A stretch of DNA of 64,000 bases, taken from the IMG/VR virus record IMGVR_UViG_3300028797_000108, positions 1 through 64,000 of that record; one strand, 5' to 3'. Below the pieces are notes generated by a model that saw only the letters and a list, made by a program, of their open reading frames with translations, was not told the origin of the DNA and ran no database searches. Positions 7,218 through 31,509 of this stretch are shown in pieces. The translations under genes were made by a program, and so were the position numbers. The stretch comes from a virus (Duplodnaviria > Caudoviricetes). Numbering within the stretch: position 1 is the stretch's first letter; each line of letters opens with the position of its first letter.

Positions 7218-7541
7218 ATGAATATAGAAGACCGAAGCAAGTGGCTAGAAGATATGTCTCAGGCGGAAATCAACCTGAGATTTGGCTATGTAAACATGCA
7301 GTTTAACAATAGGCTGAAATCCTTTGACGAATATAAGGAAGAAAGGCGTTCACATCGCTTTGCTGGTGAAGTATGCTCTTGCGAAGGATGTACCAATCCA
7401 GCCGAATACGAATCTGGTGATGAGGACGCACCTGTCGGCCTTTGTGAAAAGCATGCAGGCATTAAAAAGACCTACTGCTATAACATGGTTTACCGCCCAC
7501 AGCTTTTAATCAAATCTGAAAATACAGAAGGAAACTGGTAA
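7218..7541 (+). CDS. Hypothetical Cys/His (Zn-binding) protein
   Basis: CSCEGC...LCEKH; translationally coupled (TAATG) to the helicase. Confidence 0.55.
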   Translation: MNIEDRSKWLEDMSQAEINLRFGYVNMQFNNRLKSFDEYKEERRSHRFAGEVCSCEGCTNPAEYESGDEDAPVGLCEKHAGIKKTYCYNMVYRPQLLIKSENTEGNW

Positions 7542-9304
7542 TGGACCAAATTGAAGAAATCAAGCAACAATGTCAGGAATGGGCTAAGACCTATCTTGAC
7601 CCTAACTTTGAGTTCAGAAAATATCAGCTAGAAGCGATTGTGAACATTATCATGAATGTGTTGAACAAGACAAAAACACAGGTCATGAATGCTCCGACAG
7701 GTTCAGGAAAATCACTGACCGCAATTATCGCTGCTGGTGTGCTTTGGGAATGCTATGAAAAGAAATCATACATTCTTGTTTCTGACCTTAGCTTGTTTGA
7801 ACAATATGAAAATGACTTGAAGCGTTATAAGCTACCTTGGGGTCACCTCAAGGGCAAGGACAACTATGTTTGTCAGCGTAATGGCAATATCGTCTCCTGT
7901 GGTGAATGCGCATTGAATATGGTGGGCGCATCTGCACTAGCCGACAAGGATAAGGCCAAGATGATGGGTTATCATTGTGCCGGTGAATGCGAATACATTC
8001 AGATGCGAAACCTCGCTATATCTGCTCCAGTGACAATTATGACTTATCAGCTTTACTTAATACAAAGGAATTATGTGGCTGAAATGTTAACTGGCATCAC
8101 CGATGATATTCCCTTTGACAAGCGTGATTTGGTTATCTGTGATGAAGCACACAAACTGCCTGACATCATTCAGAACCACTTTGCTCCAAGGGTACCCGCT
8201 GAAGAACCTGAGTTCATGAAAACACTGAACGAATGGGCTAAGAAGAACAATAAGAAGGTACCAAACTCGAAGATCGTCACTACTATCTCGGCTAACATTA
8301 TGTCAACCGATGATCACGATGATCTTGTCGGTTATATGGGTAAGTACTCGGCACTGCTAACCGAATACGCCGCACTAAACGATGACATTCGTGCCAAAGC
8401 CAAAGAAACAAAGAAGTTCAAGGAAATGGCTAAGTACTTGCATGCAGGCAACCTTGCCCGTGAATGCAACTGTAAGTTTGGCGACTTCTTCAAACTGTGC
8501 GAACAGCTCGGTAATCAGATTGCAGTCAAGACAGATAGCGAAGAAGGCACTGTGATTAACTGCACATATGAAGGCGCCATGATTGAAAGGTACTTCCACA
8601 ATGTCAGCGATTGTGAACTGCTGATGAGTGCTACCTTGGGTGACCTTCAAATGTATCGTGCCATTATTGGGCTAGCGGCTTGCCCTAACGACCAGTATAA
8701 AGGGATGGATATACCATCTACATTTGACTTTAGCAAGTCGCCGATATATTATTCAGAAAAGAACCCCATGTCCTTCAAAGAAAAAGCTAAGAGCATTGGC
8801 CCTATCTGCTCACAGGTAGCCGAAATCTGCCGTATGTTCAAGGATAGCAAGGGTATCATCCAGACAGGCAACTACGAGAACAGTAAGAAACTGCTTGAAC
8901 GCATACCTGCTGATGTCAAGAAGCGCATTATCTTGTATGGTTCATCAAAGGATAAGATGTTCGCCTTGTCTAAATTTGAGAAGTCCAAGAATGGCATTCT
9001 TGTTGGACCTACACTGCTTGAAGGTCTGAACTTTGATGGCGATAAATGCAGATTTGCTATCTGTATGAAACTGCCGTATGCCTCCTTGGCAAACAATTTG
9101 GTCGCAGCCAAGATGAAACTCATTGACGGCTGGTATAACTACGACTTGATGGCTAAGCTAGAACAAGGCTTTGGCAGAGGAATTAGGTATAACGGTGATT
9201 GGTGCATCAATTATATTCTCGACGGCTGTTTCGCTAATATCCTTAAGTATAACGGAAACATGGTGCATAGGGGAATTAAGGCACGCCTTAAGAAATTGGG
9301 TTAA
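7541..9304 (+). CDS. DinG/Rad3-family SF2 helicase
   Basis: Q motif FRKYQ, APTGSGKS, KGKDNYVC Cys cluster, DEAH, MSAT, EGLNFDG, QGFGRGIR. Confidence 0.9.
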   Translation: MDQIEEIKQQCQEWAKTYLDPNFEFRKYQLEAIVNIIMNVLNKTKTQVMNAPTGSGKSLTAIIAAGVLWECYEKKSYILVSDLSLFEQYENDLKRYKLPWGHLKGKDNYVCQRNGNIVSCGECALNMVGASALADKDKAKMMGYHCAGECEYIQMRNLAISAPVTIMTYQLYLIQRNYVAEMLTGITDDIPFDKRDLVICDEAHKLPDIIQNHFAPRVPAEEPEFMKTLNEWAKKNNKKVPNSKIVTTISANIMSTDDHDDLVGYMGKYSALLTEYAALNDDIRAKAKETKKFKEMAKYLHAGNLARECNCKFGDFFKLCEQLGNQIAVKTDSEEGTVINCTYEGAMIERYFHNVSDCELLMSATLGDLQMYRAIIGLAACPNDQYKGMDIPSTFDFSKSPIYYSEKNPMSFKEKAKSIGPICSQVAEICRMFKDSKGIIQTGNYENSKKLLERIPADVKKRIILYGSSKDKMFALSKFEKSKNGILVGPTLLEGLNFDGDKCRFAICMKLPYASLANNLVAAKMKLIDGWYNYDLMAKLEQGFGRGIRYNGDWCINYILDGCFANILKYNGNMVHRGIKARLKKLG

Positions 9305-9347: not shown

Positions 9348-10235
9348 ATGAGAGAATTTAAAGATCCTAAACCACCCTTTAAGCCAACTCTTGAACATCC
9401 ATTCCCTCCGCACGATGACGGCAAGCCAATTCCGCCGCCACACCCTGGTAATTATTGTGCGGCAGCGGATGGTTTCATGAAAGCTCATCAAATTCAGAAT
9501 GTTGAGCAGTTGAAGGCATACATTAAAGGCCAGTTGGGTTCTCCAGTTATTTGTGTTGAGCTGAGCGATGAACAGTTAGAGGATATCATCCGTGACACTG
9601 TCCAGTATATTCAGCGCTACTATTTCAATGAAGGTCACTATTCAGATTGGCTCATAATGGAGCTTCAACCTGGCATTACACGATACAAGATTTGTCAGGA
9701 ATTGGAATCAGTAGTTGACTTCAGAACGTCAAACTGGATTGGCGGCATTAACGACTTGTTCACGGTACCGCATGCATTGCTTTATGACCAAGTAATGGGC
9801 ATGAACTGCTGGCAGGGCAACTGTATGGGCAACTCAGCCGCTTACGGTGATATTCTTGGAAGCTGGAAGGCAACCCTAACATGGATGGCTGAAGCAGATG
9901 ATATGTTTGGTGAACATTTCCAAGTTCGCTATAATGAAAAGGAGAAGGAACTTGAAGTAATGCCGTCACCTAAGCACCCTACAAAGGGTATGATGAAGGT
10001 GTGGAAAAGACAGCGTGCTGAACGAATCTTCAACGACTTCATGTTTAAGAAGATGGTCGTTGCTAAGGCAGGAATGGTCTGGACAAATGCTCTAAGAAAA
10101 TATAACCTCCAAATTGCCGGCGGTGGTACTCTTAACGCCGACTCGCTATATGCTAGTTATAAAGAAGATTATGACTGGTGTATTGAACATATTGAGTTCG
10201 AGTCGCCTTGTGGAGCCACATTCGCAGTAGGCTAA
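9348..10235 (+). CDS. Neck protein gp13-like
   Basis: LKAYIKGQLGSPVICVELSDEQLEDII; C-term LRKY.LQIAGGGTLNAD. Real start is the ATG at 9348 after a late promoter variant and GAGG. Confidence 0.85.
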   Translation: MREFKDPKPPFKPTLEHPFPPHDDGKPIPPPHPGNYCAAADGFMKAHQIQNVEQLKAYIKGQLGSPVICVELSDEQLEDIIRDTVQYIQRYYFNEGHYSDWLIMELQPGITRYKICQELESVVDFRTSNWIGGINDLFTVPHALLYDQVMGMNCWQGNCMGNSAAYGDILGSWKATLTWMAEADDMFGEHFQVRYNEKEKELEVMPSPKHPTKGMMKVWKRQRAERIFNDFMFKKMVVAKAGMVWTNALRKYNLQIAGGGTLNADSLYASYKEDYDWCIEHIEFESPCGATFAVG

Positions 10236-10259: not shown

Positions 10260-10946
10260 ATGTCAGAACCATTAAAGCTTTTGAATGAAGATTATATTGC
10301 CGAACAGAAGACCATTGAGGAAGCTGTAAACGGCGAACATTTTATGTACATCACTGGTCCTTTCCTAGGTGCTGAAAAGAGAAACCGTAACGGCCGTATC
10401 TATAAGCGTTCCTTGATTGAAAGAGAAGTGAATAAGTTCCAGACAATGATTAGGAACTGCGAAGCGGTTGGTGAATTGTCACATCCTGACTCAGGAGAAA
10501 TCAACCCAGACCGCGCTGCTATTCTTATCACCGAATTGAAGATGGATGGCGACCTTGCTATCGGTAAGGCTCGTATTTTGCCGACACAGTGTGGTGAGAC
10601 TTTGAAGGGTCTTATCCGCGGTGGTGTTCACATGGGCGTATCTTCACGCGGTACTGGTTCTTTGGGCGCAGACAACGTTGTTTGTGAAGACTACAACCTT
10701 ATTACCATTGACGCCGTTTACATGCCATCTTGTCAGGATGCTTATGTGAACGCTGTTAACGAATCTACTCAATGGGTTCTTGATGAAAGCACTAACCTAT
10801 ACATTGAAAAGCGTGTTAAGGTTTACAATGCTCGTCAAGATTTTAATGCTGCCATTGACAAGGGTGGTTCTAAGGCTATTGCTGGCGCCTTCAAGCAGTA
10901 CATGAATGCAATTAAGGGCGTTGACCTCAAGGGAGTAAAGTTCTAA
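10260..10946 (+). CDS. Prohead core protease gp21
   Basis: GPFLGAEKRNRNGRIY, GELSHP, GVSSRGTGS, D.VYMPS. Confidence 0.95.
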   Translation: MSEPLKLLNEDYIAEQKTIEEAVNGEHFMYITGPFLGAEKRNRNGRIYKRSLIEREVNKFQTMIRNCEAVGELSHPDSGEINPDRAAILITELKMDGDLAIGKARILPTQCGETLKGLIRGGVHMGVSSRGTGSLGADNVVCEDYNLITIDAVYMPSCQDAYVNAVNESTQWVLDESTNLYIEKRVKVYNARQDFNAAIDKGGSKAIAGAFKQYMNAIKGVDLKGVKF

Positions 10947-12977: not shown

Positions 12978-15458
12978 ATGGTCACAAACATCACTAAGCG
13001 TGACGGGCGTAGAAGAAAGTTCAGTATTACCAAAATATCCAGTGCTATAGAAGCAGCGTTTAAAGAAACCGAAGAAAAATATACTGACGAAGACCTTGAC
13101 CGCCTTGTTCAAACTGTTGTTGATGAAATTTCAAAAGATGGAGCCAAAACCGTTAAGGTAGAAGATATTCAAAATGTTATTGAAAAGACATTGATGAATT
13201 TTGGGTTCCACGACACTGCAAAGCAGTTTATCCTATACCGTGAAGAACGAAATCGTGTTAGAGATACCAAATCTGACATCGTTAAGACAATTAAAGAAAT
13301 CACTGAAAGCAACCTCAAGAGCTCAAACATCCTACGAGACAATGCTAACGAATCTGGAGCAACTCCAGCGGGAGCATACGGCAAAATTGCATCTGAAACC
13401 AACAAGATGTATAACTTGCTGAACAACATTGATAGGAAATATGCGATTGAACATAAGGACGGAGCAATTCATATTCATGACTTGAACCAGTATAACCTTA
13501 CATTCAACTGCTTGTTTGCTCCAGTAGGCAAATTGCTTAGACATGGCTTTGACTCAGGTACCGGCTTCCTTCGTGCACCGCAGTCAATTCAAACAGCAGC
13601 AGCCTTGACAGCAGTGATTTTGCAGTTGCAGTCAAATCAGCAGTTCGGCGGTATTGCCGACGACAACATTGACTTTGACCTTGCACCGTTTGTAGATTTA
13701 TCATTCAAGAAAAACCTTAAAACTGAGTTAATCCGCTACGAAGAATATAGCGGCTCGCCTGCATGCGCCGGTGATATGGATAAGCTCTTGAAGACTGTTT
13801 CCATGAACCAGCCAGTTGAACGCCTAAACATGCTCTTCCCTCATAAGTGTGTTGAAAAGGCTATCAAGAAAACAGACGATGATACCCATCAGGCTATGGA
13901 AGGCCTAATCGGCAACTTGAACTCACTACAGTCACGTTCAGGCAACCAGGTTCCGTTCTCATCACTGAACTTTGGTCTTGATACATCAAATTGCGGACGA
14001 ATGGTTTCGGCTAACCTTATCCGTTCACAGATGGAAGGCTTGGGTGATGGCTTGACAGCAATCTTCCCGATTTTGATTTTCAAGTTGATGAAGGGATATA
14101 CCAAGAACCCTGAAGATCCTAACTATGACTTGTATCAGAGGTCGCTTGAATGTTTGGCAAGACGCTTCTATCCGAACTTTGTTCGTGTTGACTCGTCATT
14201 CAACGCTCCGTATGTCAAGTATCGTGAAAAGATCATTGATGTCAAGGGCGTGCTTTCACTTGAATTAAAGGTGAGAGGTAGGGACGAAGTTGAACAAGTA
14301 TTCGTAAATGAAGATGTTGTCTTTGACCAGCCTAAATATGAATTTGAAGTTGGTACTGGTGAGTACTGGGAAATTGCCGCTATTGAGAACGGCATGTTGA
14401 AATTGAGAAAGCTCATTGAGAACACCACTGTTTCAACGATGGGTTGCCGCACTCGTGTTTTGGGCAACATCAATGGCGCTGAACAAACAACCGGCCGTGG
14501 AAACCTTGCATTCCACACCATCAACCTTCCGCGCTTGGCTATTGAAGCGCACATGGCTGCTGATACGGTTGAAGAAAGAAAAGCAATCTTCTTTGAAAAG
14601 CTTCAGAACATTCTTCAAGATGTTAAAGGAAGCCTCCTTGATAGGTTCGCTCTCATTTCAAAGAAAACATACGAATCTTACCCATTCACAATGCAGCAAG
14701 GTCTGTATCTCACATCTGATGATGAACCGCACGATGTCACTGACACGGTCGGGGAAGTATTCCGCCAGGGATCTTTGTCAATTGGTTATGTGGGCATTGC
14801 GGAAGTGGTGACACTCATCACTGGTAAGACATGGGGCGTTGACCACGACATTGACGATTTCGCTTTGAGCATCGTTAAGACGATTCGTAAGTTCTGTGAT
14901 GAACAGCAGAAGGAAACTCACTTGAACTGGTCTTGTTTCGCAACACCTGCAGAAGCAGTCGCAGGCAGATTCGCAAACATTGACAAGAACAAGTTTGAAA
15001 ATGAGAAAAAGCTAAAGGATGTGGATTTGTATCGTATCTTTGGCAAGGGCTATTACACGAACTCGCATATGATTGATTATTCAGTCAATACATCACTCGT
15101 GAACAAGCTCAAGACAGAGGCTCCATTCCACAAGTTAACGAATGCTGGACACATTTTCTACTACAAACTGAATGGTGACCTCAGCAAGAACATTGACGCC
15201 GTTAAACACGTGATTGATGCGATGTATGACGCCGACCTTGGCTACTTCACTGTCACTATGGACTCAGATGACTGTCTAGAATGTGGTTTCCACGGCATCA
15301 TCAACGATGCTTGCCCTAAGTGCGGTTGCAAGAATGAAGATAAGTTCGTTCGTGTTCGCCGTATCACAGGCTACTTGACCGGTTCTCCAAGAAAGTCAAT
15401 TACCAAATCATGGAATGATGGTAAGCTTGCTGAATTGAGAGATAGGCACAACATTTAA
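12978..15458 (+). CDS. nrdD: Anaerobic (class III) ribonucleoside-triphosphate reductase
   Basis: ATP-cone (ITKRDGR), IHIHDL, TFNC, MGCRT, GRGNL, ATPAE, YYTNS, CLECG..CPKCG, glycyl-radical motif RRITGYL. Confidence 0.96.
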   Translation: MVTNITKRDGRRRKFSITKISSAIEAAFKETEEKYTDEDLDRLVQTVVDEISKDGAKTVKVEDIQNVIEKTLMNFGFHDTAKQFILYREERNRVRDTKSDIVKTIKEITESNLKSSNILRDNANESGATPAGAYGKIASETNKMYNLLNNIDRKYAIEHKDGAIHIHDLNQYNLTFNCLFAPVGKLLRHGFDSGTGFLRAPQSIQTAAALTAVILQLQSNQQFGGIADDNIDFDLAPFVDLSFKKNLKTELIRYEEYSGSPACAGDMDKLLKTVSMNQPVERLNMLFPHKCVEKAIKKTDDDTHQAMEGLIGNLNSLQSRSGNQVPFSSLNFGLDTSNCGRMVSANLIRSQMEGLGDGLTAIFPILIFKLMKGYTKNPEDPNYDLYQRSLECLARRFYPNFVRVDSSFNAPYVKYREKIIDVKGVLSLELKVRGRDEVEQVFVNEDVVFDQPKYEFEVGTGEYWEIAAIENGMLKLRKLIENTTVSTMGCRTRVLGNINGAEQTTGRGNLAFHTINLPRLAIEAHMAADTVEERKAIFFEKLQNILQDVKGSLLDRFALISKKTYESYPFTMQQGLYLTSDDEPHDVTDTVGEVFRQGSLSIGYVGIAEVVTLITGKTWGVDHDIDDFALSIVKTIRKFCDEQQKETHLNWSCFATPAEAVAGRFANIDKNKFENEKKLKDVDLYRIFGKGYYTNSHMIDYSVNTSLVNKLKTEAPFHKLTNAGHIFYYKLNGDLSKNIDAVKHVIDAMYDADLGYFTVTMDSDDCLECGFHGIINDACPKCGCKNEDKFVRVRRITGYLTGSPRKSITKSWNDGKLAELRDRHNI

Positions 15459-15464
15459 TACCAC

Positions 15465-15492
15465 GGAGGGCTAGGAAACTGGCCCTCCCTTT
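15465..15492 (+). terminator. Rho-independent terminator
   Basis: GGAGGGCTAG-gaaa-CTGGCCCTCC plus CTTT. Confidence 0.7.
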
Positions 15493-15583
15493 ATGTATAG
15501 ATAAAATATGGGGTCAGTCTATTGACTTGGCCTTAGATTTTGTTTATTTTAATTTCAACCAATTCATAAAAAGGAGATAACAC

Positions 15584-17395
15584 ATGAAGTTGTTAAAATG
15601 GCTCGCCGTGCTTATCTTGCTTTGTATGTCCGCAGGCATTTGTGCCCCGTTGGCAGAAGGAGCAACTAAGTTCGTCGGAAACATCACCACTAATGGTCAA
15701 GTCCGTTCTGACTTCGGTCAGTACTGGAACCAAATCACTGCTGAAAATGAATGCAAGTGGGCTTCCATTGAAGGCACACAAGGTCGTTATAATTGGAGTG
15801 GATGCGATGCCGCATATAATTGGGCAAAGCAGAACAATGCTCACTTCAAATTTCACGCCCTTGTTTGGGGTTCTCAATATCCCAATTGGCTGAATGGAAA
15901 ATCCGCTGCTGACACAAAGACAGCTATTACGAACTGGATGGATGCGGTAAAGAATCATTACCCAGATCTTGAAATGATAGATGTGGTCAATGAAGCAATT
16001 AAAACAAACGACGGCAAATATCACTCAGCCTACGGACCGCAGGGCAACAATAATATAATAGCAGCGCTTGGCGGAGATAACGGCAATTATGAATTTGTGA
16101 CTACTGCATTTAAGATGGCTCGTGAACGCTGGCCTGATGCGATTTTGATTTATAATGACTATAATACCGTTCAGTGGCAGAAGAATGAAGGTATTGACCT
16201 CATCAATAAGATTAAGGCTGCGGGAGCTCCGGTAGACGCATACGGCCTACAGGCACACGACATGCAGAAGGCCGGTGGCGGTAATGGCGGTACTGGCGGT
16301 GGCGGATCTTGTTTAGACATTAACACACTGAAGTCTGCTATTGAAGAAATCTGGAATAAGACCCAGATGCCGATGTTCATCTCCGAATATGATATTGCTA
16401 CCGAAGATGACAATGACCAGAAGAACTGCTATGAACAGCAGATTTCTTACTTTATGGAAAATGAGCACATCGCAGGTATCACCCTCTGGGGCTACATCTA
16501 TGGCTCAACTTGGACTACCAACGGTAACTCCGGCATTATTAAGAATGGAAATGATCGTCCTGCTATGACATGGCTAAAATCTTATTTGCCATCTCACCCA
16601 GGTCAGAACTCAACCGGCTTGCCTACAGGTGAGGGCGGTACTATCGTTGAACCCGAACCGCAGAAACCATTTAAGGGCGAAGCATTTAACCTTGCATTCC
16701 CGATTGAAGCAGAAGACTTTGACATCCCAGGAAAGGGCGCCGGTAATAATTCATATTCAGTCAGCGGTGACTGTAATGATACATGGAACACAACATACCG
16801 TGCTGGCACATCTGTAAAGATTGGCGATAAGAATGGCGGTATGGTGATTGGATGTAATGCAACAGGCAACTACTACCAGTATACCATCAAGGTTCCTGAA
16901 GCAGGCAATTATATTGTGTATGCAACAGTGGCTGCGGAAGGCGATGGCGCTATTCTGTTTAAGGTTGGCAACAAGGCAGTGTCTGATACAATGAAGTTCA
17001 CTGGAGACTCATGGTCTAAGTTTGAAAAGATTAAGGGACAGGCAACATTCAGCGCTGCTGGTGAACAGATCTTGACCCTTGAAATTGCTCAAGGCTACAT
17101 TGATGTTGACAACTTCGAGTTCGCAGTAACTGACTGTGCTCCGGGTGATGCTCTTTGCGGAGGCCCATCATACAACTGTGATGCTTATCCTGATGATCCT
17201 ATGTGTAAGACTGTGTGGATTGACTTCAACAAGGCAGACGCTGAATTGCTGAACTTTGAAGTATATGATCCTTCTGGCAAATACCACGGTGCTTTACAGG
17301 GTATGACTGCAACTGACGCAGTAAGATACTCGAAGTTGAGCCCAGGTATCTACCTAATGAAAGTTAACGGCTCTTGGAAGACCGTAATTAAGTAA
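15584..17395 (+). CDS. Secreted GH10 endo-1,4-beta-xylanase with CBM6-like module and Fibrobacter-type C-terminal domain
   Basis: Signal peptide; ITAENECKW, HALVWGSQ, DVVNE (acid/base Glu), YNDYN, GLQAH, ISEYD (nucleophile Glu), ITLWG; CBM6-like IEAEDFD; C-term VYD..GK...GIYL.K. Confidence 0.92.
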   Translation: MKLLKWLAVLILLCMSAGICAPLAEGATKFVGNITTNGQVRSDFGQYWNQITAENECKWASIEGTQGRYNWSGCDAAYNWAKQNNAHFKFHALVWGSQYPNWLNGKSAADTKTAITNWMDAVKNHYPDLEMIDVVNEAIKTNDGKYHSAYGPQGNNNIIAALGGDNGNYEFVTTAFKMARERWPDAILIYNDYNTVQWQKNEGIDLINKIKAAGAPVDAYGLQAHDMQKAGGGNGGTGGGGSCLDINTLKSAIEEIWNKTQMPMFISEYDIATEDDNDQKNCYEQQISYFMENEHIAGITLWGYIYGSTWTTNGNSGIIKNGNDRPAMTWLKSYLPSHPGQNSTGLPTGEGGTIVEPEPQKPFKGEAFNLAFPIEAEDFDIPGKGAGNNSYSVSGDCNDTWNTTYRAGTSVKIGDKNGGMVIGCNATGNYYQYTIKVPEAGNYIVYATVAAEGDGAILFKVGNKAVSDTMKFTGDSWSKFEKIKGQATFSAAGEQILTLEIAQGYIDVDNFEFAVTDCAPGDALCGGPSYNCDAYPDDPMCKTVWIDFNKADAELLNFEVYDPSGKYHGALQGMTATDAVRYSKLSPGIYLMKVNGSWKTVIK

Positions 17396-17401: not shown

Positions 17402-17426
17402 AGAGCCCATTTCGGTGGGCTCTTTT
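17402..17426 (+). terminator. Rho-independent terminator
   Basis: AGAGCCCA-tttcgg-TGGGCTCT plus TTT. Confidence 0.8.
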
Positions 17427-17526
17427 ATAGTCTTGTCTTTTAGAAACTTTATTTGAAAAAACCATTTACATTATCGTCAAATGTTATTATTTTATTACGC
17501 AAACTTGAAAGCCCAGCGAGGTATGA

Positions 17527-17804: not shown

Positions 17805-20800
17805 ATGAAGAAAATCTTATTCTACATAATGGCGGTTTTGATAGCAGGCGCAGGTGCGGCTGACTACAGACCATTCACATTTGAAAATGTAGCCACTGAC
17901 ACTGTCTCTCAACAGGCGGAATTTGACTACATGCTTCAATACAAGCTATATGGCACGGACTATATCAAGATGGGTCGCCGTGTCATCATTCCTGATAAGT
18001 CGGGATGGAACGGTTCAAGCGGACCGATTACATCTGCTGAACAAATCAGCCTTGGTGGTCCCGTGCTTACGGATAGCACCATCACATTGGGTGATGGATG
18101 TAAGTTCACAACTGGACCTATTCGTGCTAAGTCACTGACAACAGGAAACGATAACGGCGAAGCTCTGTTCGCTGGCAAGATCTGTTTGGCTAATGCTCCG
18201 ACTGGACAGATAACCACAGGTATTAACAGAGGTGAAGGAACCTTGTCTTGCGACTCCGTTCCTCCTGCTCCGGTCACATTGAAGATGCCTACTATCGTCT
18301 GGCCTGCAGACGGTTATCAAGAAGACATTATCTTGACTGAAAATAACCAAGCCGATACCATTCATGTTCCAGAAGGTGAAGGACAATATGACCTTTACTT
18401 TAAGAACATTCATACATGCGTTGGTGGTAAGAACGGATGTAAGATTTACATTCAGATGGAGAAGAACCGTCTAACAAGAATTTTCGTTGACTCATTGTTC
18501 ATCGGTAACCATACCACAATAAGCGTTATTCTTGGAGACTCCGTTTTGCCGCAGAGCAAATACCGCGGTAATGTGCTTATCTATTCAAACAAGGACATCA
18601 TCTTTGATAACACTGACAATGTGCCTATCCAAGGCTCATATATCACAACCTCAAAGATTTACCTAAAATGTAACCTTGACTTCTCAGGTCAGTTGCTTGC
18701 TAACCAGCTTGAAATCGGTGATGACTTCAAGGGTGAGAATTTCCACTTCGTGAAGTATGACCCCGATACTCTTGACTTCCCAGAATTGAATAAGCAGGGT
18801 GGTTTGAGAGAAAATGATAGCACCGTAATTATTCCTATTCAGTTAAGCGATACATCAACGATTGATGTATTCTTTACATACTGCTTTGACCTGAAGGACG
18901 GCGTCACTATTGAAGACTTTAACCAGCCGCCATTCATACCGATTTGTGGTGATACTGCTATCACAACGAAAATTCCTATCGGCGGAAAGGCACCTATTGA
19001 CACAATTAAGGTCAATGTAAAGAAGGATACGATTGTTGAACCAAATGACTATCTGATTATGCACATTGATAGCATTACAGGTGCGGTCTTGCCAAACGGC
19101 GAAACATCAGGTGAGTTGAAAATCAAGATCATTGATGCTGAGGCTGCAAAGAACACATCGGTGGTCCTTGACAAGACAGATACAATTAAGACATATCAAG
19201 AAGAATTGCGTATTCCTCCTGGAACCGGCATTGTAGGCAATATCAAATATACAGATGATGGCCTCGCACCGCTTATCTGGAGCATTGAAGATCCTAGCGG
19301 ATTGTTCACTGTTGTGGACGGCGTGATTAAGACAAATCATGTGTTTGACTACGAAACCGAAGATACCATATATGTTGTAAAGATTAAGGTTGAAGATGGT
19401 GAATTTGCGGACAGCGCTAATTATACCATCAAGATCACAAACATTGATGAACCGATTACGGTCACAGGTAAGGTTGACCCAGTTTATGAAAACTCAGAAC
19501 TTGGAACACCTATTGGCGTCATTACGGGTGTAGATGCCGACAGCACCGCGGTAACTTACACCATTAACACAACAGATTTCAAGATTGACCCGGTCACTGG
19601 CGTAATCACAACTAACACATTGCTTGATTATGAAACCAAAACATCATATCCTGTTAAGGTGACAGCAACATCAACAGATGGTTCTAAAAAGGATACTAGC
19701 TTCGTCATCAAGGTATTGAATGTTAATGAGCCTGTTCATGTAAGGGACACAACCTTCAGCGTTGATGAAGGAAAGGTCGGCGATTTAGGTAAAGTAATAG
19801 CGGAGGACGAAGATGGAGACCCTATTAAATTTACTGTCAGCAATACTGATGATTATCGCATCGATAGCACTGGGAAACTTACCCTGGTGACACCTTTTGA
19901 TTACGAAACGAAGAAGGCAGATACTGTCACGGTTTATGTGACAGATGGAACCTTCAAAGATTCGGCAAAGGTTATCATCAAGGTGAACAATGTCAATGAA
20001 GACCCGAAACTACAACCAAATGACTCGCTCACTGTTCCTGAAAATTGTAAGAGCTGCATTGTAGGCATCATTACAGCGATTGACCCAGACAAGGACCCAA
20101 TCAAGTATGATGTAATTCAGCCTGGCTTTGCGATTGACAGTAACGGCGTGTTGAAATTGACTGAACCGCTTGATTTTGAAACAACACCAGAAGTTAAGAT
20201 TACGGTTATTGCCAAGGATCCTAATGGAGGTGCAGATACAGCGATTTATGTCGTGAAGGTCACTGACATTAATGAACCTGTGCATACAAAAGATACCACA
20301 TGTTCTGTAAAGGAGAATTACACCGGCAAGGTCTGTAAGGTGACTGGAACTGACGAGGATAAGACACCTCCGAAATTCATTATCACCGACACCACAAATT
20401 ATTCTATAGACTCAACAGGCGTTATCACAATTAAGAACCCAATTGACTATGAGAAGAAAACAAAGGACACTGTAAAGGTTATCGTCACAGACGGTGAATT
20501 TGCAGATACCGCAACTATCATAATCAGGGTACTTGATGAACCTGAAACAGTCGAGATTACAAAGTGGGACGACGAAAAGCCAAAGGATACCGTAAAGACC
20601 AATGATCCTGACCACCGTTTTGAATGGCAGGTATGCGAAGGTGACACATGTAATGGTCACATCGAGACACCTCATATCAAGAAGGACACAGTCATTAAGG
20701 TATGTAATGATAAGAAGACCGTTTGTGACTCAATTGTCGTTCTGTTCAATGATGCTCCTCCGGTAGTGACATTGACCAATGCAAAGAGCACTGACGCTTT

Positions 20801-22283
20801 GATTGACTACATTACCATTGAGGAAACAAAGGACGATAAGATATATGTGAACAAGAAGGATAATCAGTTGGTCGTGACTGTGAAGGACACAGTTCACAAA
20901 ACAACAAAAACCTTCCCAATTGATGTCAAGCTAGATACAGTTCATGTAAGTACTAAAAACATCAAGGACTATTCATACTTGATTGACGAAAGCTTGGCAA
21001 CAACCACATCTATCGGCAACGGTAAATTTGAAAAGAAGGAAGTTATAACAGACAACGGCGTTGTCATCACCTTGACCCAAGTTGTTGATAAGAAGGGTAA
21101 TCCTATTGACACAACCCAGACTGTCACATACACGGTTAAGCAAGATGGTAAAGATATCGTTATTTCATACAAGGTTGACAACCTAACAGGTCAGCGTATT
21201 TCTGACTATAAGGTTTCATACTCAATTGACTCTTGCACAACGGTATCTTACTTCTTAGATGACAACAAGAAAATCGCAAAGAACAAGGAAGGCAACATTG
21301 CTTACACCGTCACTTACGACTACATAGATGATTTCGGCAATAAGGCATCTTCAAAGGTTGACATAATCTTTGACGATATTCCGCCTTCACTTGAAATCTT
21401 GTCACCTTACGGCGGCGAGGCATTCAACCGAAATGCTATTCCTGTGGAATGGACAGTCAACGGAGTTAAGCAAGATACCTTGACATTGCAGAGACTTGAA
21501 AAAGGCGTCAATTATGTTATCCGTAGATATGTTGACAAGGCTGGCAATGTTGCTGCTGATACAGTAATGGTAATCATGAAGGAAGCAAAGGATATTGAGA
21601 TAAACATCGTCAACCCAGTGACGAAGGTAAATCAAGATAAGGTTGACTCCTTCTATGCCGACAACAAGTATAACCCGAAGAAGCCTTATACGGTGACTAC
21701 TTTGAAGGGCGATGATAAACCTGACCCGGTCGGTATCGGATTTAAGGTTGACATTGCTTTGCCTTCAGTATCACCAACGGGTGGTTTGGCAACGCTTGAT
21801 GATATCGTCAAGAACGGAATGATACCGATTGATGATAAAGGCAACATTGTCGGAGCTTCAACAAAGGGTATACCTGTTGACCAATATGTTGACGAACACT
21901 GCACTGAAGAATTCAAGAAGGACTATCAGAAGCATGGATTGAACATTCCATTGTATGATGTGACCTATAACATGCACTTGTGGGTTTACACAACACAAGC
22001 GAACTATGTAAATGATTTCGTTGTTGAATACACACTGAACGACGAAGACGAGGCTACATCTGCGGGAACCGTGACAATGGTGGTTGACTACTTGACAGAT
22101 AGAGATGGCAATGTTAAGGCTAAGAATGGTCACTCGCTCGGAACCAGTTCTTATATCACCAAGCTCTTCTCCAAGTCAATAGCAAAACATCGCTGTGACT
22201 ATAAGGAGCAACGAAAAGGCGATAAGACGGTTAAGAAGGAAGAAGACATGACCATCTTCGGTTATAAACGACCAACTAAATAA
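17805..22283 (+). CDS. Large secreted cadherin-repeat surface protein (Fibrobacter-like)
   Basis: Signal peptide; Calx-beta-like DTIVEPND; five cadherin repeats (FDYET, LDYET, FDYET, LDFET, IDYEK with N[VI][ND]E linkers and D.D.D Ca motifs); Ig-like DKAGN; C-term FGYKRP. Confidence 0.85.
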   Translation: MKKILFYIMAVLIAGAGAADYRPFTFENVATDTVSQQAEFDYMLQYKLYGTDYIKMGRRVIIPDKSGWNGSSGPITSAEQISLGGPVLTDSTITLGDGCKFTTGPIRAKSLTTGNDNGEALFAGKICLANAPTGQITTGINRGEGTLSCDSVPPAPVTLKMPTIVWPADGYQEDIILTENNQADTIHVPEGEGQYDLYFKNIHTCVGGKNGCKIYIQMEKNRLTRIFVDSLFIGNHTTISVILGDSVLPQSKYRGNVLIYSNKDIIFDNTDNVPIQGSYITTSKIYLKCNLDFSGQLLANQLEIGDDFKGENFHFVKYDPDTLDFPELNKQGGLRENDSTVIIPIQLSDTSTIDVFFTYCFDLKDGVTIEDFNQPPFIPICGDTAITTKIPIGGKAPIDTIKVNVKKDTIVEPNDYLIMHIDSITGAVLPNGETSGELKIKIIDAEAAKNTSVVLDKTDTIKTYQEELRIPPGTGIVGNIKYTDDGLAPLIWSIEDPSGLFTVVDGVIKTNHVFDYETEDTIYVVKIKVEDGEFADSANYTIKITNIDEPITVTGKVDPVYENSELGTPIGVITGVDADSTAVTYTINTTDFKIDPVTGVITTNTLLDYETKTSYPVKVTATSTDGSKKDTSFVIKVLNVNEPVHVRDTTFSVDEGKVGDLGKVIAEDEDGDPIKFTVSNTDDYRIDSTGKLTLVTPFDYETKKADTVTVYVTDGTFKDSAKVIIKVNNVNEDPKLQPNDSLTVPENCKSCIVGIITAIDPDKDPIKYDVIQPGFAIDSNGVLKLTEPLDFETTPEVKITVIAKDPNGGADTAIYVVKVTDINEPVHTKDTTCSVKENYTGKVCKVTGTDEDKTPPKFIITDTTNYSIDSTGVITIKNPIDYEKKTKDTVKVIVTDGEFADTATIIIRVLDEPETVEITKWDDEKPKDTVKTNDPDHRFEWQVCEGDTCNGHIETPHIKKDTVIKVCNDKKTVCDSIVVLFNDAPPVVTLTNAKSTDALIDYITIEETKDDKIYVNKKDNQLVVTVKDTVHKTTKTFPIDVKLDTVHVSTKNIKDYSYLIDESLATTTSIGNGKFEKKEVITDNGVVITLTQVVDKKGNPIDTTQTVTYTVKQDGKDIVISYKVDNLTGQRISDYKVSYSIDSCTTVSYFLDDNKKIAKNKEGNIAYTVTYDYIDDFGNKASSKVDIIFDDIPPSLEILSPYGGEAFNRNAIPVEWTVNGVKQDTLTLQRLEKGVNYVIRRYVDKAGNVAADTVMVIMKEAKDIEINIVNPVTKVNQDKVDSFYADNKYNPKKPYTVTTLKGDDKPDPVGIGFKVDIALPSVSPTGGLATLDDIVKNGMIPIDDKGNIVGASTKGIPVDQYVDEHCTEEFKKDYQKHGLNIPLYDVTYNMHLWVYTTQANYVNDFVVEYTLNDEDEATSAGTVTMVVDYLTDRDGNVKAKNGHSLGTSSYITKLFSKSIAKHRCDYKEQRKGDKTVKKEEDMTIFGYKRPTK

Positions 22284-22300
22284 AGAATAAATTATTTCAA

Positions 22301-22330
22301 AAGGGGTTGCCAAACGGCGCCCCATTTTTT
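22301..22330 (+). terminator. Rho-independent terminator (imperfect stem)
   Basis: GGGGTTGCC-aaac-GGCGCCCC plus T run. Confidence 0.6.
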
Positions 22331-22353
22331 AATTTTATAACAGAGGATTTGAA

Positions 22354-23268
22354 ATGATTGATTTAACTGCTTTAGAAATTGCTAACTGGTGTGACGAAAA
22401 CCAAATTCCATACTTTGCTTGTTATCAAGAGCGCCCAAGATGGTGCAGCGGTGAAGATACGAAGAGAATGTTCGTTTTCTTCCCAGATGGCAGAGATGAC
22501 GGCATTGTGTTTGAATTTCATACCAACGCTAATTCCTTCAAACCTGACCGTGTTGCATTTTCCGATGTTTATGTCTGGAAGTGGAAAAACGCTTATGAGA
22601 AAGGTCTTGAGATTGCTGCTGATAAAGCGAACCTTGGAGCTAAGCACATGCATTCTCCGATTGCTTGGCTTGACTATGGCGGATTGCCAAATGAATTTTG
22701 GCAGTATCAGCGAGTTGATGTTCGTCCTATCGCCAACAAGATTTACGGCGACAGAGACCATGAACATTCAATGGAAGAACTGAAAGAATTGACACTTAAT
22801 GAAGTCAAGCGTCTTCGTAAGAGAGAAAAGTCTGTTAAGAAGCAGCTCATCAAACTTGAAAGTAAGTTAGGTTTGCCGATTGAAAAGATACAGGAAATCC
22901 TTACTGAAACAGGTGAAGAATTTAACATTAAGATGGAACGCATTGCTGACCGTATTGTTCGCTGGCATACATTCTATCATGTGTTCGTTGCCTATAACGA
23001 TAAAAACGGAATGAAGCGTTGGGCAAAGGCATTTACTATCGCTGAAGGCGGAGTTAAGGATAACATCCTGCACCGCATTGAAGTCAGTTACGAAACTGAA
23101 CAGGAACTCGGTTTAGGCGGACAATATGTTTATGCCAATTCAACCGAAGAAATCTGTGAATTTGCGAAACTGATGCTTACACGAGCTGCTGCACAACAGA
23201 ATGCAAGGGAATATGCTCAGAAGCACTGCGTCTTCCGATACAATGATTTGAAGCCAAGAAGTGAATAA
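22354..23268 (+). CDS. Hypothetical protein
   Basis: 304-aa ORF with GAGG RBS. Confidence 0.65.
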   Translation: MIDLTALEIANWCDENQIPYFACYQERPRWCSGEDTKRMFVFFPDGRDDGIVFEFHTNANSFKPDRVAFSDVYVWKWKNAYEKGLEIAADKANLGAKHMHSPIAWLDYGGLPNEFWQYQRVDVRPIANKIYGDRDHEHSMEELKELTLNEVKRLRKREKSVKKQLIKLESKLGLPIEKIQEILTETGEEFNIKMERIADRIVRWHTFYHVFVAYNDKNGMKRWAKAFTIAEGGVKDNILHRIEVSYETEQELGLGGQYVYANSTEEICEFAKLMLTRAAAQQNAREYAQKHCVFRYNDLKPRSE

Positions 23269-23271
23269 AAT

Positions 23272-23298
23272 AAAAGGCGGGAGAAATCCCGCCTTTTT
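23272..23298. terminator. Bidirectional terminator
   Basis: AAAAGGCGGGA-gaaa-TCCCGCCTTTT. Confidence 0.85.
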
Positions 23299-23462
23299 CT
23301 GTAATTTTTGCATAATCTGTATAATTACTAATTTTTAGGTAATTTATCACAAATAAACAAGAACTCTGCTCAAAACTGTAATAAAACTGCCCAAATTTCA
23401 TAAATTTAAGATAGAAAATTTGTCAGTTTGCGGCGAAAAAGCCGGTTTTGAAAACAAAAATT

Positions 23463-23489
23463 GGAGCCCATGAAAATGGGCTCCTTTTT
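23463..23489. terminator. Terminator hairpin
   Basis: GGAGCCCAT-gaaa-ATGGGCTCC plus TTTTT. Confidence 0.75.
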
Positions 23490-23523
23490 AGTATGAAACG
23501 TGTCCGATTATTTCGGCTGGGAG

Positions 23524-24105
23524 TTAAATGTCTTCTGCATCTGCCCAGTTGTCATCCATGTTGAACAGATGGAACTTACCGCGCTTGATGGTTCCCGGTG
23601 ACAAGAAGATTGTTGCCTTTTTATCGGTAATCTTGAACTTCTGTTTCAATGCCTTTTCAAATCCGGGCTTTGCTGGTCCGTCATTGTATCTTGCATATTT
23701 GTCCATCAAGTCTTGACACTGACGATAATTCAACATACAGTCATTACCGTATGTTTTAGCGACTGTGCCATCCGGCTTAAGATAGCCAAGCGTATAGTCA
23801 TCAACGTATTCGTCTTTTTCTTCGTCATACGCATCAGTTGAAACAACTAGCTTGATAGCCCAGATACCTGCATTTATCTTTTTCCGCCAGACGCTGTCGT
23901 GGTCCGGTATCTTGCTCAGCTTTCTATCAATAGCATCAACTTCTTTATCTTCCTTGTCTGTCAATGCTCTGTCTCTGGCGCCCTTGAAAATGTTATGTCT
24001 TCTCAGATTAAGAGGAAACTCTTCATCATCGTGGGTGTCGGTGTCTTCTTTAATAAATTGAGCACCTGCTGCTCTTAATTTATCCAATGCTTCGTCTAAT
24101 TTCAT
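23524..24105 (-). CDS. MELNEA-leader family protein
   Basis: Probable start MKLDEALDKLRAAGAQFIKE at 24105. Confidence 0.6.
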   Translation of the reverse strand: MKLDEALDKLRAAGAQFIKEDTDTHDDEEFPLNLRRHNIFKGARDRALTDKEDKEVDAIDRKLSKIPDHDSVWRKKINAGIWAIKLVVSTDAYDEEKDEYVDDYTLGYLKPDGTVAKTYGNDCMLNYRQCQDLMDKYARYNDGPAKPGFEKALKQKFKITDKKATIFLSPGTIKRGKFHLFNMDDNWADAEDI

Positions 24106-24106
24106 T

Positions 24107-25351
24107 TTATCTGCCCTCATAAGCTAATGCTGCCATTTCTTCGTAATCCGGCTTGCCGGCACCACGATAGAATTTCTTGTGGTCCTTAATGTAGAATTGG
24201 TAATGTCTTTCAACTTCTTTAACAAATTCTTTAGGTGAAGAAGCGTCTCCGCCGCCATCTCTTGTAGCGTCAAAGTAGCTGACTGACAATTTCTTTTGTC
24301 CTGGCTTATTGTATTGCGGCGGCACAGCGAAGCCAATCACATAGTCTTCAATGTGTCCTTTCTTGCCAGCCTTATATCCAGTCTTGAACTTGCCTGGTTT
24401 CTTGAACACGAAGAAGCGTTCATTAGGTGACGAAAATGCAGGGTCACCATAACCCTTAGGCAATTCCTGTCCCATCCATGTTCCGACGTATTTCCAGCCC
24501 AATTCAACTAGGCCATCAAAAATTGCTTTAACCTTTTCGTCATTTTCAGGTGACTGGTTAAATGCCTTTGCGTATTCAGCCTTAGAACCAACTACTCGGC
24601 CTTCCTGGCCGTCTTCAGCCTTCCAGTATTCAATTGGTTCACCAGCACCGAATTCCTTTTGATATTCATCTTCTGCTTTGTGAACTTGGTCCCAATTTCT
24701 TGCTCGTCTTTCAAAGTCTTTATCGGTAGCGGCGTTGTGGCGCTTTGCCCATTTCTGACGCTGAGCGTGTGTCAAGCCGGCAGGCATATCAGCAACATCC
24801 CAATCATCGGTATCTTCTTTCAAAACCTTGGCGCCCACGCTTTCAAGCAATTTCAATGCATGTTCAATTTCCATAGATTCTCCAACTGTTTGGCTCTTTT
24901 GTTTGATTAACTCAATGACCTCATACAAAGATTCACAATCAGTCATTTCTTTGCGTGTGGCACTGTAAATTGTTTTTACTTTATAAACAAAGCCGTAAGG
25001 ATAAATCATAAACCTTACGGTAGGTGTATTGACTGAAATGCAGTCAGCAGAACAGCCGACATGAAATTCGTCAAATGCCTTCTGAATACGGTCAGCAATA
25101 CGGGCGTTCATTGTTTCTTCGCCTTCTCGTGCTGCCTTCAAATCTGTTTCGGAAAAAGCTGGGCGATAATTCGGTTCAGTGACGCGGCGCATAGCAAGTT
25201 CAGATGGAGAAGAGCTTGTTTGCGGTTTCTTAGGTCTAGGACCCATAATCGTCACTTTTTTTGCCCATGACGGGGCAATACCTTTTTCAATCTTTCTACG
25301 GTCCCAGCGGTTGAAATCGCCTTCCATGTAGCCTTCGTCAATGTCTTTCAT
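24107..25351 (-). CDS. Hypothetical late protein with an internal MELNEA-type module
   Basis: Internal MEIEHALKLLESVGAKVLKEDT (ATG 24874 preceded by GGAG); minus-strand late promoter at 25368-25375. Confidence 0.6.
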   Translation of the reverse strand: MKDIDEGYMEGDFNRWDRRKIEKGIAPSWAKKVTIMGPRPKKPQTSSSPSELAMRRVTEPNYRPAFSETDLKAAREGEETMNARIADRIQKAFDEFHVGCSADCISVNTPTVRFMIYPYGFVYKVKTIYSATRKEMTDCESLYEVIELIKQKSQTVGESMEIEHALKLLESVGAKVLKEDTDDWDVADMPAGLTHAQRQKWAKRHNAATDKDFERRARNWDQVHKAEDEYQKEFGAGEPIEYWKAEDGQEGRVVGSKAEYAKAFNQSPENDEKVKAIFDGLVELGWKYVGTWMGQELPKGYGDPAFSSPNERFFVFKKPGKFKTGYKAGKKGHIEDYVIGFAVPPQYNKPGQKKLSVSYFDATRDGGGDASSPKEFVKEVERHYQFYIKDHKKFYRGAGKPDYEEMAALAYEGR

Positions 25352-25367
25352 TAAAATACCTCTACAG

Positions 25368-25379
25368 TATTTATAAATA
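25368..25379. promoter_or_regulatory. Palindromic bidirectional late promoter TATTTATAAATA
   Basis: Perfect palindrome giving TATAAATA on both strands between divergent genes 25351(-) and 25395(+). Confidence 0.75.
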
Positions 25380-25394
25380 ACTAGAGGTTGAATA

Positions 25395-26297
25395 ATGTTT
25401 AAGAAGAACGAATTATTGCGAGCCGCCGGCGAAAAGGTTCAGATGACGCCCGAGCAGATGCAAGAGTATTTGAAGTGTAAACGTAATATCTTCCACTTCG
25501 CTAAATACTTTGAAATCACTGCTGCGGACGGTATTCATCCTATTAAGCTCCGTGGCTACCAGCAGCGTTTGGTGAAGGCTATCACGACCAAAGTACCTGG
25601 CCGAAACAACCGTATCATTATGATGGGTCGCCAGTCTGGTAAGACAACCATCGCTACGCTTTACATTACATGGTATGCTTTGTTCCATCCAGCGAAGATT
25701 ATCGCTATCTTGGCTAACAAGGCTTCTCAGGCCGATGAAATTATGTTCCGTATTCAGCAGGCCTATACTTCACTGCCAATGTGGCTGCAGAAGGGTATCA
25801 TCAAATGGAACCAATCAGAATTTATTCTTGAAAACAAGACAAGAGTATTTTCAGCAGCGTCATCTTCTTCGTCAATCCGTGGTAAGACGGTTGACCTTGA
25901 ACTGGTGGACGAATTTGCTCACCTTGATGACAAAGCTGCTGATGCCTTTATGAACTCTGTGTTCCCTACTCAAGCATCTCGTCCTGACGCTATGCTTTTG
26001 CTTATTAGCACACCGAAAGGATTTAACCACTTCTATAATATCTGGAACGACGCAAAGTTAGGGCGTAATACCTTTATTCCTTGTAAGGTTCAGTGGTGGG
26101 AGATTGACGGTCGTGATGAGAAATTCAAAGAAAAGATTATCCGCGACCACGGTATCAAGCACTTCAACCAGGAATATGCTTGTCTGACAGGTGACCAGAA
26201 GATTACCGTGAAAGACGATTGGGGCAAGATCATTACTGCGCCAATTGGACACATCTATGAATTCCAAAATGAATTGAAACAGATAAAGAATAAATAA
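25395..26297 (+). CDS. terL: Terminase large subunit (gp17) N-terminal ATPase half fused to a split-intein N fragment
   Basis: LRGYQ, Walker A GRQSGKTT, ILANK, SIRG, Walker B VDEFAH, ISTPKG.NHFY, FNQEYA, then CLTGDQKITV... and stop; no nuclease domain. Confidence 0.92.
   Translation: MFKKNELLRAAGEKVQMTPEQMQEYLKCKRNIFHFAKYFEITAADGIHPIKLRGYQQRLVKAITTKVPGRNNRIIMMGRQSGKTTIATLYITWYALFHPAKIIAILANKASQADEIMFRIQQAYTSLPMWLQKGIIKWNQSEFILENKTRVFSAASSSSSIRGKTVDLELVDEFAHLDDKAADAFMNSVFPTQASRPDAMLLLISTPKGFNHFYNIWNDAKLGRNTFIPCKVQWWEIDGRDEKFKEKIIRDHGIKHFNQEYACLTGDQKITVKDDWGKIITAPIGHIYEFQNELKQIKNK
26181..26294 (+). mobile_element. Split intein N-fragment (38 aa)
   Basis: CLTGDQKITVKDDWGKIITAPIGHIYE matches intein block A (C-L-x-G-D-x-x-I-x-V) placed at the conserved gp17 QE[YF]x|CEF site. 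Confidence 0.85.
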
Positions 26298-26300
26298 AAT

Positions 26301-27942: not shown

Positions 27943-27978
27943 ATAAAATAAACCAATAGATTTTTATAGGAGATCACA

Positions 27979-28410: not shown

Positions 28411-28439
28411 TAGTTAGACTGCGGACATAAATTTTCAGG

Positions 28440-28471
28440 GACTGCGGAATTAAAACCGCAGTCTTTGTTTT
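28440..28471 (+). terminator. Rho-independent terminator
   Basis: GACTGCGG-aattaaaa-CCGCAGTC plus T-rich tail. Confidence 0.75.
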
Positions 28472-31508: not shown

Positions 31509-31509
31509 T

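Follow-up and report, generated by a model that had tools for sequence, protein, structure and literature searches.

We describe here a gene for a predicted secreted xylanase in a phage of the Caudoviricetes. The DNA analysed, hereafter the window, is a 64-kb stretch forming the first part (positions 1 to 64,000) of the IMG/VR virus record IMGVR_UViG_3300028797_000108, which has 139,105 bases and a CheckV completeness of 37%. An open reading frame (ORF) at 15584-17395 on the plus strand encodes a 603-residue protein with a signal peptide, a glycoside hydrolase family 10 (GH10) catalytic domain, a family 6 carbohydrate-binding module (CBM6), a Cys-rich linker and a basic C-terminal domain. We consider it likely that this is a host-derived auxiliary xylanase gene of a T4-like rumen phage of about 400 kb that infects Fibrobacter, and that the exported enzyme uncovers cellulose during infection. 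Fibrobacter is among the main cellulose degraders of the rumen, and to our knowledge almost nothing is known of its phages.

Judged by its sequence and predicted fold, the protein is a putative endo-beta-1,4-xylanase, intact and of the same type as Fibrobacter Xyn10. An earlier reading made from the DNA letters alone (the sequence-only reading) had proposed the ORF at these coordinates, both catalytic glutamates, a CBM6-like module and a C-terminal VYD..GK...GIYL.K motif, and all four were borne out. The GH10 match (PF00331) scores 191 bits against a cut-off of 22.1 and covers profile positions 22-308 of 311, the CBM6 match scores 40.8 bits against a cut-off of 28.9, and the C-terminal motif is present as VYDPSGK (residues 560-566) and GIYLMK (residues 588-593). 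The best solved-structure matches are the Xanthomonas GH10 xylanases 4pmx, 4pn2 and 4pmy (E 7e-51), with 144 PDB GH10 chains matching at E <= 1e-3; the catalytic domain aligns end to end with solved GH10 barrels, and the counterparts of its DVVNE (E137) and ISEYD (E268) motifs in 4pmx are VVNE and ITEFD. The alignment to 4pmx, a mature protein, begins at residue 21. Across 51 homologues from phages and Fibrobacter, eight residues do not vary (N136, E137, E268, K58, H91, H225, W302 and W310), the last five of them being usual GH10 active-site residues. An AlphaFold model based on an alignment of the same 51 homologues has a mean predicted local distance difference test score (pLDDT) of 82.9, and is confident for the barrel, for the sandwich of CBM6 and for the final 50 residues: residues 30-340 alternate between strands and helices (pLDDT mostly 85-97) as in a (beta/alpha)8 barrel, and residues from about 360 to 516 form the all-beta sandwich of a CBM6 (pLDDT about 85-94). 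Two homologues from F. succinogenes, FSU_2293 and FSU_2294, appear in the literature as characterised xylanases (PMC3079729).

The surroundings of the gene are viral. The sequence-only reading had argued against host contamination from virion genes on either side, and PHROGs hallmarks were indeed found on both: tail sheath, helicase, head-tail adaptor and head maturation protease 5' of the xylanase gene, and large terminase, portal, major head protein and baseplate wedge 3' of it. The T4-type late-promoter motif TATAAATA was observed 18 times in the window against 2.05 expected, with 17 of the 18 sites on the plus strand, shortly 5' of genes that include structural ones. The motif is often lengthened to TATAAATACAAT. 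Overall G+C of the window is 39-47%. Two relatives, G001 (424,163 bp) and G004 (415,750 bp), are complete, with terminal repeats, and both bear the xylanase; their major head proteins are 62-64% identical to that of the window, and the one from the record of contig L089 is 86% identical. From these features we read the record as covering 139 kb of a T4-like rumen phage whose genome is roughly 400 kb.

The junctions of the gene with its phage neighbours recur in three independently assembled contigs. Two viral contigs from other samples, L088 (22.8 kb) and L089 (64.7 kb), have the gene order of the window (helicase, adaptor, protease, nrdD, xylanase, cadherin-repeat gene, terminase), with 43-80% protein identity for the neighbours and 83% for the xylanase, and in the third, L130, the xylanase again follows nrdD. 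Because the nrdD-xylanase-cadherin order is the same in two independent assemblies, the window is not a chimera, and what it holds is a host-derived metabolic gene within a genuine viral genome, that is, an auxiliary metabolic gene. The xylanase was found on 12 further IMG/VR contigs (65-86% identity) and occupies at least five distinct phage neighbourhoods; none of 12 xylanase-bearing viral loci has a flanking gene in common with the Fibrobacter loci. The closest relatives of the window, L102 and L103, were found among 39 viral loci retrieved via nrdD (identities: sheath 89%, methyltransferase 95%, protease 90%, terminase 92%, nrdD 82%), and in both the cadherin-repeat gene comes directly after nrdD, with the xylanase absent. 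The nrdD gene, at 75-82% identity in L088, L089, L102 and L103, marks an insertion site common to these relatives. The xylanase gene is an optional, movable cassette, accessory in this phage group. At the same site L089 also carries nrdG (9364-9885; Fer4_12, E 1e-46), between nrdD and the xylanase; the corresponding position in the window (15459-15583) and in L102 has no nrdG.

The borders of this cassette can be described closely. The sequence-only reading had seen a stand-alone unit beside nrdD, between terminators at 15465 and 17402; we recovered both hairpins and nrdD, and it is exactly this cassette that L102 and L103 are without. At each end of the indel there is a terminator-like hairpin followed by a predicted early-type promoter, which is the border layout of promoter-early stem-loop (PeSL) cassettes. 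The left promoter is homologous to the nrdD-cadherin intergenic promoter of the xylanase-less L102 (local alignment score 44, shuffles 17.2 +/- 2.6, reached by 0/500), the 3' side of the right hairpin aligns with the L102 terminator (score 27, shuffles 17.5 +/- 2.8, reached by 2/500), and in a three-way alignment the hairpin, TAGA(A/T)A and -35/-10 elements are laid out alike. The pattern ATTGAC-N17-19-TATTTT occurs once in the window, where the module is thus not a dispersed repeat family; the two flanking modules are not significantly alike in pairwise alignment, and an ungapped direct-repeat search across the cassette borders returned nothing relevant. AAGGAGA or GGAG precedes the start codon in eight phage copies. 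The late-type motif TATAAATA is absent from the xylanase promoter of the window and stands directly before the xylanase ribosome-binding site of L089.

The nearest cellular homologues are all Fibrobacter Xyn10 enzymes, in keeping with the Fibrobacter-like rumen host that the sequence-only reading had proposed. When one genome per prokaryotic species was scanned, 77 loci came back, of which the best 53 are almost all from Fibrobacter metagenome-assembled genomes (MAGs) or isolates (40-77% identity); Prevotella and Bacteroidaceae loci come next, at 45-50% identity over the catalytic domain only. The Fibrobacter copies stand in tandem paralogue arrays and have the same domain order. That this GH10-CBM6-C-terminal-domain layout is typical of Fibrobacter, as had also been claimed, is confirmed by FSU_2292-2294, which have it too (PMC3079729). 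Deposited phage genomes gave no close GH10, just two partial matches at 29% identity, and in BFVD there was no fold neighbour nearer than GH5 barrels (<=14% identity).

The G+C content of the xylanase gene at third codon positions (GC3) is 0.45, within the 0.27-0.45 of the phage copies and unlike the 0.56-0.69 of the Fibrobacter copies, and it is therefore not a recent contaminant. The linker pattern C..CGGPS.NC....P.C is common to all full-length phage copies and absent from all Fibrobacter and other bacterial loci compared. Pairwise ratios of nonsynonymous to synonymous divergence (dN/dS) among phage copies are 0.06-0.17, with dS >= 1 and synonymous sites thus at or beyond saturation, and are similar to the 0.11-0.12 between Fibrobacter orthologues. 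The xylanase is under purifying selection in the phages.

Phage and Fibrobacter chromosomal xylanases form one gene pool with exchange at the level of domains. In a full-length tree, 13 phage copies and one Fibrobacter gene form a clade (Shimodaira-Hasegawa-like approximate likelihood-ratio support of 100), and by an approximately unbiased test a clade of phage copies alone is not rejected (p 0.97). A tree of the GH10 and CBM6 columns gives instead a clade of 25 members (100/100), 13 from phages and 12 from Fibrobacter, in which the phage label changes three to four times; this makes the xylanase gene a mosaic. A single clean acquisition by phages was considered and rejected, since no bootstrap tree has only one change. 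Domain-wise identities in the copy of phage G004 (locus L083) account for the conflict between the trees: its GH10 is 93% identical in amino acids to that of the Fibrobacter gene at L010 7962-9731 and only 74-76% identical to that of the window group, whereas for CBM6 the identity to other phage copies is 82-88%, and linker and tail are both phage-type.

The strongest case for return of a domain from phage to host is this same L010 gene, a chromosomal xylanase of Fibrobacter sp. ruminal_MAG_69 (contig JBGUWV010000050.1). Its GH10 has a GC3 of 0.35 and is closest to phage L083 (87% nucleotide identity), whereas its CBM6 (GC3 0.56) and tail (GC3 0.78) are host-like and closest to L008 1897-3693 from another Fibrobacter (96% and 86% nucleotide identity, respectively), an orthologue whose own GH10 has a GC3 of 0.64. 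Along the locus G+C falls to 0.38-0.44 at 7501-9000, against a background of 0.50-0.56, and homology to phage DNA begins about 75 bases into the ORF, past the signal peptide. This base composition suggests that a phage-evolved GH10 replaced the host GH10, in the phage-to-host direction. A second Fibrobacter gene, L011 7923-9725 of Fibrobacter sp. RGIG8275, is also mosaic: in GH10 and CBM6 it comes nearest the phage copies (L090, 89%), in linker and tail it has 74-75% identity to the adjoining host paralogue, and its GC3 is host-like (0.65), so that the direction of transfer cannot be read from composition. On a fuller proposal we are evenly balanced, namely that Fibrobacter and giant phages share an evolving pool of xylanase domains, from which the phages would keep an enzyme with a T9SS (type IX secretion system) tail for display, acting as a reservoir and a shuttle back to the host cluster.

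How the enzyme would leave the cell depends on its C-terminal tail. The claim of a host-type export tail in the sequence-only reading stood as far as homology to the basic terminal domain of Fibrobacter (BTD/FPm-1) goes; matches to the T9SS family profiles come close to threshold and stay below it. A hidden Markov model (HMM) built from 51 phage and Fibrobacter tails matches the xylanase tail at E 5.6e-18, the columns common to phage and Fibrobacter being F/Y-D..G...G...Y...A...G.Y; the domain is thus C-terminal, of pI >9, within about 50-70 residues and homologous, as BTD/FPm-1 domains are, although only 20-35% identical to the host tails. Raut et al. proposed BTD/FPm-1 as a T9SS sorting signal and found it missing from mature surface enzymes (PMC6851124). 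The translocon protein SprA (TIGR04189) was found in three of three Fibrobacter MAGs (1105-1128 bits, ORF of about 2290 residues). Export by Sec and then T9SS is, from these signals, most likely the route taken by the xylanase, and membership of the tail in the T9SS sorting-domain family is not secure. In the AlphaFold model the tail has a confident beta-beta-alpha-beta-beta fold, for which Foldseek returned no match at E <= 1e-3, and a profile of the tails recovered no T9SS domain from PDB sequences. An HMM search of the 139-kb record and five related phage records found no ORF with the same tail besides the xylanase. In a related phage contig the gene directly 5' of the xylanase (L085:7327-8220) encodes a 297-residue protein with a signal peptide and a sub-threshold Por_Secre_tail match (24.3 bits, residues 233-294); this protein is possibly a further T9SS cargo that the phage encodes.

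Three lines of sequence evidence point to Fibrobacter as the host: the phylogeny and architecture of the xylanase, the domain exchange, and the cadherin-repeat neighbour. The last resembles Fibrobacter genes at both the DNA and the protein level in 61 of 101 genomes: homologues of its C-terminal 350-800 residues end alike in FGYKRP, and amino-acid identity reaches 30-35% over the C-terminal 500-800 residues; a control with 101 genomes from the genus of a Prevotella MAG gave no matches. This C-terminal part matches no annotated family, and the ESM Atlas gave just immunoglobulin-like leads below 0.9. By these similarities we count it as the second envelope protein of Fibrobacter-like kind. One Fibrobacter MAG bin includes a 4.7-kb contig (L091, G050:C104) with little on it besides a 60%-identical copy of the phage cadherin-repeat gene; this contig is probably a piece of phage DNA that was sorted into the bin of its host.

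We propose the following course of events. Host RNA polymerase would transcribe the gene from its own sigma-70-like promoter, the product would cross the inner membrane by Sec, and the host T9SS would recognise and remove the basic C-terminal domain, leaving the mature xylanase at the surface of the cell or on vesicles, where it would strip xylan from plant fibre and uncover cellulose. Cellulose would be the only polysaccharide to support Fibrobacter growth, and the infected, fibre-attached cell would thus have a continued supply of energy during the replication of a very large phage genome. The sequence-only reading had also offered the freeing of pentoses as a benefit. F. succinogenes hydrolyses xylan but, lacking xylose transport and xylose isomerase, cannot use xylose, and the role ascribed to its hemicellulases is to open up access to cellulose (PMC3079729). 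Pentose supply is therefore an unlikely benefit, and the exposure of cellulose is plausibly the better reading.

Several results weigh against an exported, fitness-enhancing xylanase in a Fibrobacter phage. The gene is dispensable, being absent from L102 and L103, and neither of two near-complete relatives, G214 (411 kb, 98% complete) and G215 (348 kb, 91% complete), gave a xylanase match. Promoter type varies among the copies, late-type in L089 and sigma-70-like in the window, and the promoter matches were scored against a sigma-70-like consensus that may not be that of Fibrobacter. On the export side, Por_Secre_tail (PF18962) reaches 23.4-24.5 bits over residues 539-601 against a cut-off of 27 and TIGR04183 (NCBIfam) 21.7 bits against 23, and of the 51 related tails only that of the window matches Por_Secre_tail at E <0.01. 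The VIA-align top 50 for the tail includes eight T9SS C-terminal domains (RgpB, NucA, RemZ, FspA, HBP35, mirolase, PorU and RemA), at weak Z scores of only 3.1-3.9. As to the host, a search of window positions 20001-40000 for CRISPR (clustered regularly interspaced short palindromic repeat) spacers in the 101 Fibrobacter genomes gave chance-level matches of 23-31 nucleotides (E >= 0.002 per genome).

Other explanations must be set against our preferred one. The main rival, which we think improbable without being negligible, is that the xylanase aids dispersal: exposed on the infected cell, or freed when that cell lyses, it would loosen the xylan-rich matrix round fibre-attached Fibrobacter microcolonies and let progeny virions reach neighbouring cells. 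An enzyme that seems extracellular by design, with its signal peptide and sorting tail, and that a CBM6 would direct to hemicellulose, suits such a role, as do the tight attachment of growing Fibrobacter to fibre (PMC3079729) and the late-type TATAAATA or AATAAATA motifs that precede the xylanase in L089 and L083. However, the promoter of the window copy is sigma-70-like and not late, nothing ties the xylanase to virions, and with Fibrobacter itself making several such enzymes any extra effect on the matrix is unclear. Should the protein instead be part of the particle, as a depolymerase used in adsorption, one could point to the frequency of glycanase domains in phage tail proteins and to the tail-fibre and depolymerase entries among its viral structural neighbours; those matches are, however, distant GH5 barrels (<=14% identity), the xylanase is not joined to any tail-fibre domain, and a Sec signal and secretion tail would take it out of the cytoplasm, where virions assemble. 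We regard a virion role as very improbable.

The mobility of the gene raises the further question of whether it does anything for the phage. It could be a passenger, shuffled among phages by recombination at terminator-promoter modules and of no benefit to them, given that its presence varies among close relatives, that it sits in at least five different genomic contexts and that its flanking modules resemble the gene-moving modules of T4-type phages (PMC4122927). But a neutral gene would have decayed, and this one shows dN/dS of 0.06-0.17 over saturated synonymous divergence, keeps all its catalytic residues and has shifted in composition to that of the phage; a pure passenger is, in our view, distinctly unlikely. 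Least credible of all is that Fibrobacter DNA was joined to phage DNA by mis-assembly or mis-binning. The 67-77% identity of the xylanase to Fibrobacter proteins would invite that suspicion, yet contigs assembled independently from other samples (L088, L089 and L130) have these junctions too, Fibrobacter genes flank 0/12 viral loci, the codon composition is phage-like, the linker is specific to phage copies and the upstream module is held in common with L102. An auxiliary xylanase that uncovers cellulose for an infected Fibrobacter cell remains the explanation we prefer.

Coordinates of the gene, its domains and its neighbours are collected below. Between the cassette and the cadherin-repeat gene lies a small ORF that has no counterpart in L088, L089 or L102. 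The cadherin-repeat gene is itself preceded by the late-type motif AATAAATA.

Table 1. Features of the xylanase cassette and surrounding phage genes, in window coordinates.
Feature	Position	Strand	Remarks
Xylanase gene	15584-17395	+	ORF
Predicted Sec signal peptide, about aa 1-20	15584-15643	+	MKLLK then hydrophobic run, read from sequence
GH10 catalytic domain, aa 34-331	15683-16576	+	Pfam Glyco_hydro_10, E 3.1e-56
Predicted acid/base residue E137	15992-15994	+	DVVNE motif, aa 133-137
Predicted nucleophile E268	16385-16387	+	ISEYD motif, aa 266-270
CBM6, aa 405-513	16796-17122	+	Pfam CBM_6 (PF03422)
Cys-rich linker CAPGDALCGGPSYNCDAYPDDPMC	17132-17218	+	between CBM6 and tail
Basic C-terminal domain, aa 554-603, pI 9.1	17243-17392	+	homologous to Fibrobacter BTD/FPm-1; candidate T9SS sorting signal
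nrdD (anaerobic ribonucleotide reductase)	12978-15458	+	Pfam NRDD E 1e-150, ATP-cone, Gly_radical; upstream neighbour
Left terminator-like hairpin	15465-15488	+	closes nrdD; 10 pairs, 7 G-C, then T-rich run
Left sigma-70-like promoter	15521-15555	+	TTGACT-17 nt-TATTTT; promoter scan
Ribosome-binding site AAGGAGA	15571-15577	+	6 nt before ATG
Right terminator-like hairpin	17402-17423	+	closes xylanase gene; 9-pair stem
Right sigma-70-like promoter	17465-17493	+	TTTACA-17-TATTTT; promoter scan
Small ORF, 82 aa	17527-17775	+	one hydrophobic segment; no Pfam match
Secreted cadherin-repeat protein, 1492 aa	17805-22283	+	Pfam Cadherin E 6e-30; downstream neighbour
Tail sheath	1934-5032		PHROGs; upstream of xylanase
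Head maturation protease	10260-10946		PHROGs; upstream of xylanase
Large terminase	25395-26297		PHROGs; downstream of xylanase
Portal	42402-43997		PHROGs; downstream of xylanase
Major head protein	47177-48463		PHROGs; downstream of xylanase
Baseplate	49878-52607		PHROGs; downstream of xylanase
TATAAATA, example sites	1859, 10236, 12902, 35969, 44007, 49856		

The xylanase gives a sequence-based host assignment for a family of phages of about 400 kb, which carry, and preserve by selection, part of the surface fibre-degrading machinery of their host. It suggests that a phage product can ride the host type IX secretion pathway, and the domain mosaics point to phages as a route of fibrolytic enzyme diversification, which bears on feed efficiency and enzyme discovery.

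The closest known counterparts are FSU_2292-FSU_2294 of F. succinogenes S85 (GH10-CBM6-BTD/FPm-1; PMC3079729, PMC6851124), which have the domain order and catalytic residues of the phage xylanase and whose orthologues in rumen Fibrobacter MAGs, in tandem arrays, are its nearest cellular relatives. The gene described here differs from that cluster in being phage-encoded, in its AT-shifted codon usage, in the phage-only Cys-rich linker that replaces the host linker and in the divergence of its tail from the host tails. The solved Xanthomonas enzymes 4pmx, 4pmy and 4pn2 align over the whole catalytic domain (residues 21-340) and have both motifs, and are single-domain, proteobacterial proteins without CBM6 or tail. 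At its borders the cassette is like the PeSL cassettes that mediate gene shuffling in T4-type phages (PMC2839356, PMC4122927), with a hairpin terminator and then a sigma-70-like promoter at both ends of the indel gene, and a single module in relatives without the gene (L102 and L103); unlike theirs, the module here, read from sequence alone, is not repeated in the window and its flanking copies are not significantly alike.

Among viral enzymes, GH5 and GH9 cellulases of rumen viruses have been cloned and were active in E. coli, and GH16 and GH114 are further families for which viral auxiliary genes were reported (Yan et al. 2023, PMC10465536). Those GH5 and GH9 enzymes are likewise plant-fibre hydrolases with viral flanks, closest to rumen bacterial enzymes; the present one belongs to GH10, with xylan as its predicted substrate, and here the gene was followed through a family of phages of about 400 kb, its selection was analysed, and a candidate sorting tail and signs of exchange back to the host were found. 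A virome of Japanese cattle yielded thirteen glycoside hydrolase families, GH10 not included (10.1101/2023.03.20.532305). A GH10 xylanase does appear among the auxiliary carbohydrate-active enzymes of mangrove soil viruses (Jin et al. 2019, PMC6460857), virus-encoded, by annotation, as ours is; the predicted hosts there are Firmicutes in soil, and no architecture, secretion-tail or evolutionary analysis is described. The literature searched describes no Fibrobacter giant phage, no phage GH10 with a T9SS-type tail and no exchange of xylanase domains from phage to Fibrobacter. Virus-encoded hydrolases of plant polysaccharides are already established, and the value of this case is in its particulars and not in a new principle: an accessory cassette in phages of about 400 kb, a host secretion tail that has been kept, and a gene pool that recombines with the xylanases of the host.

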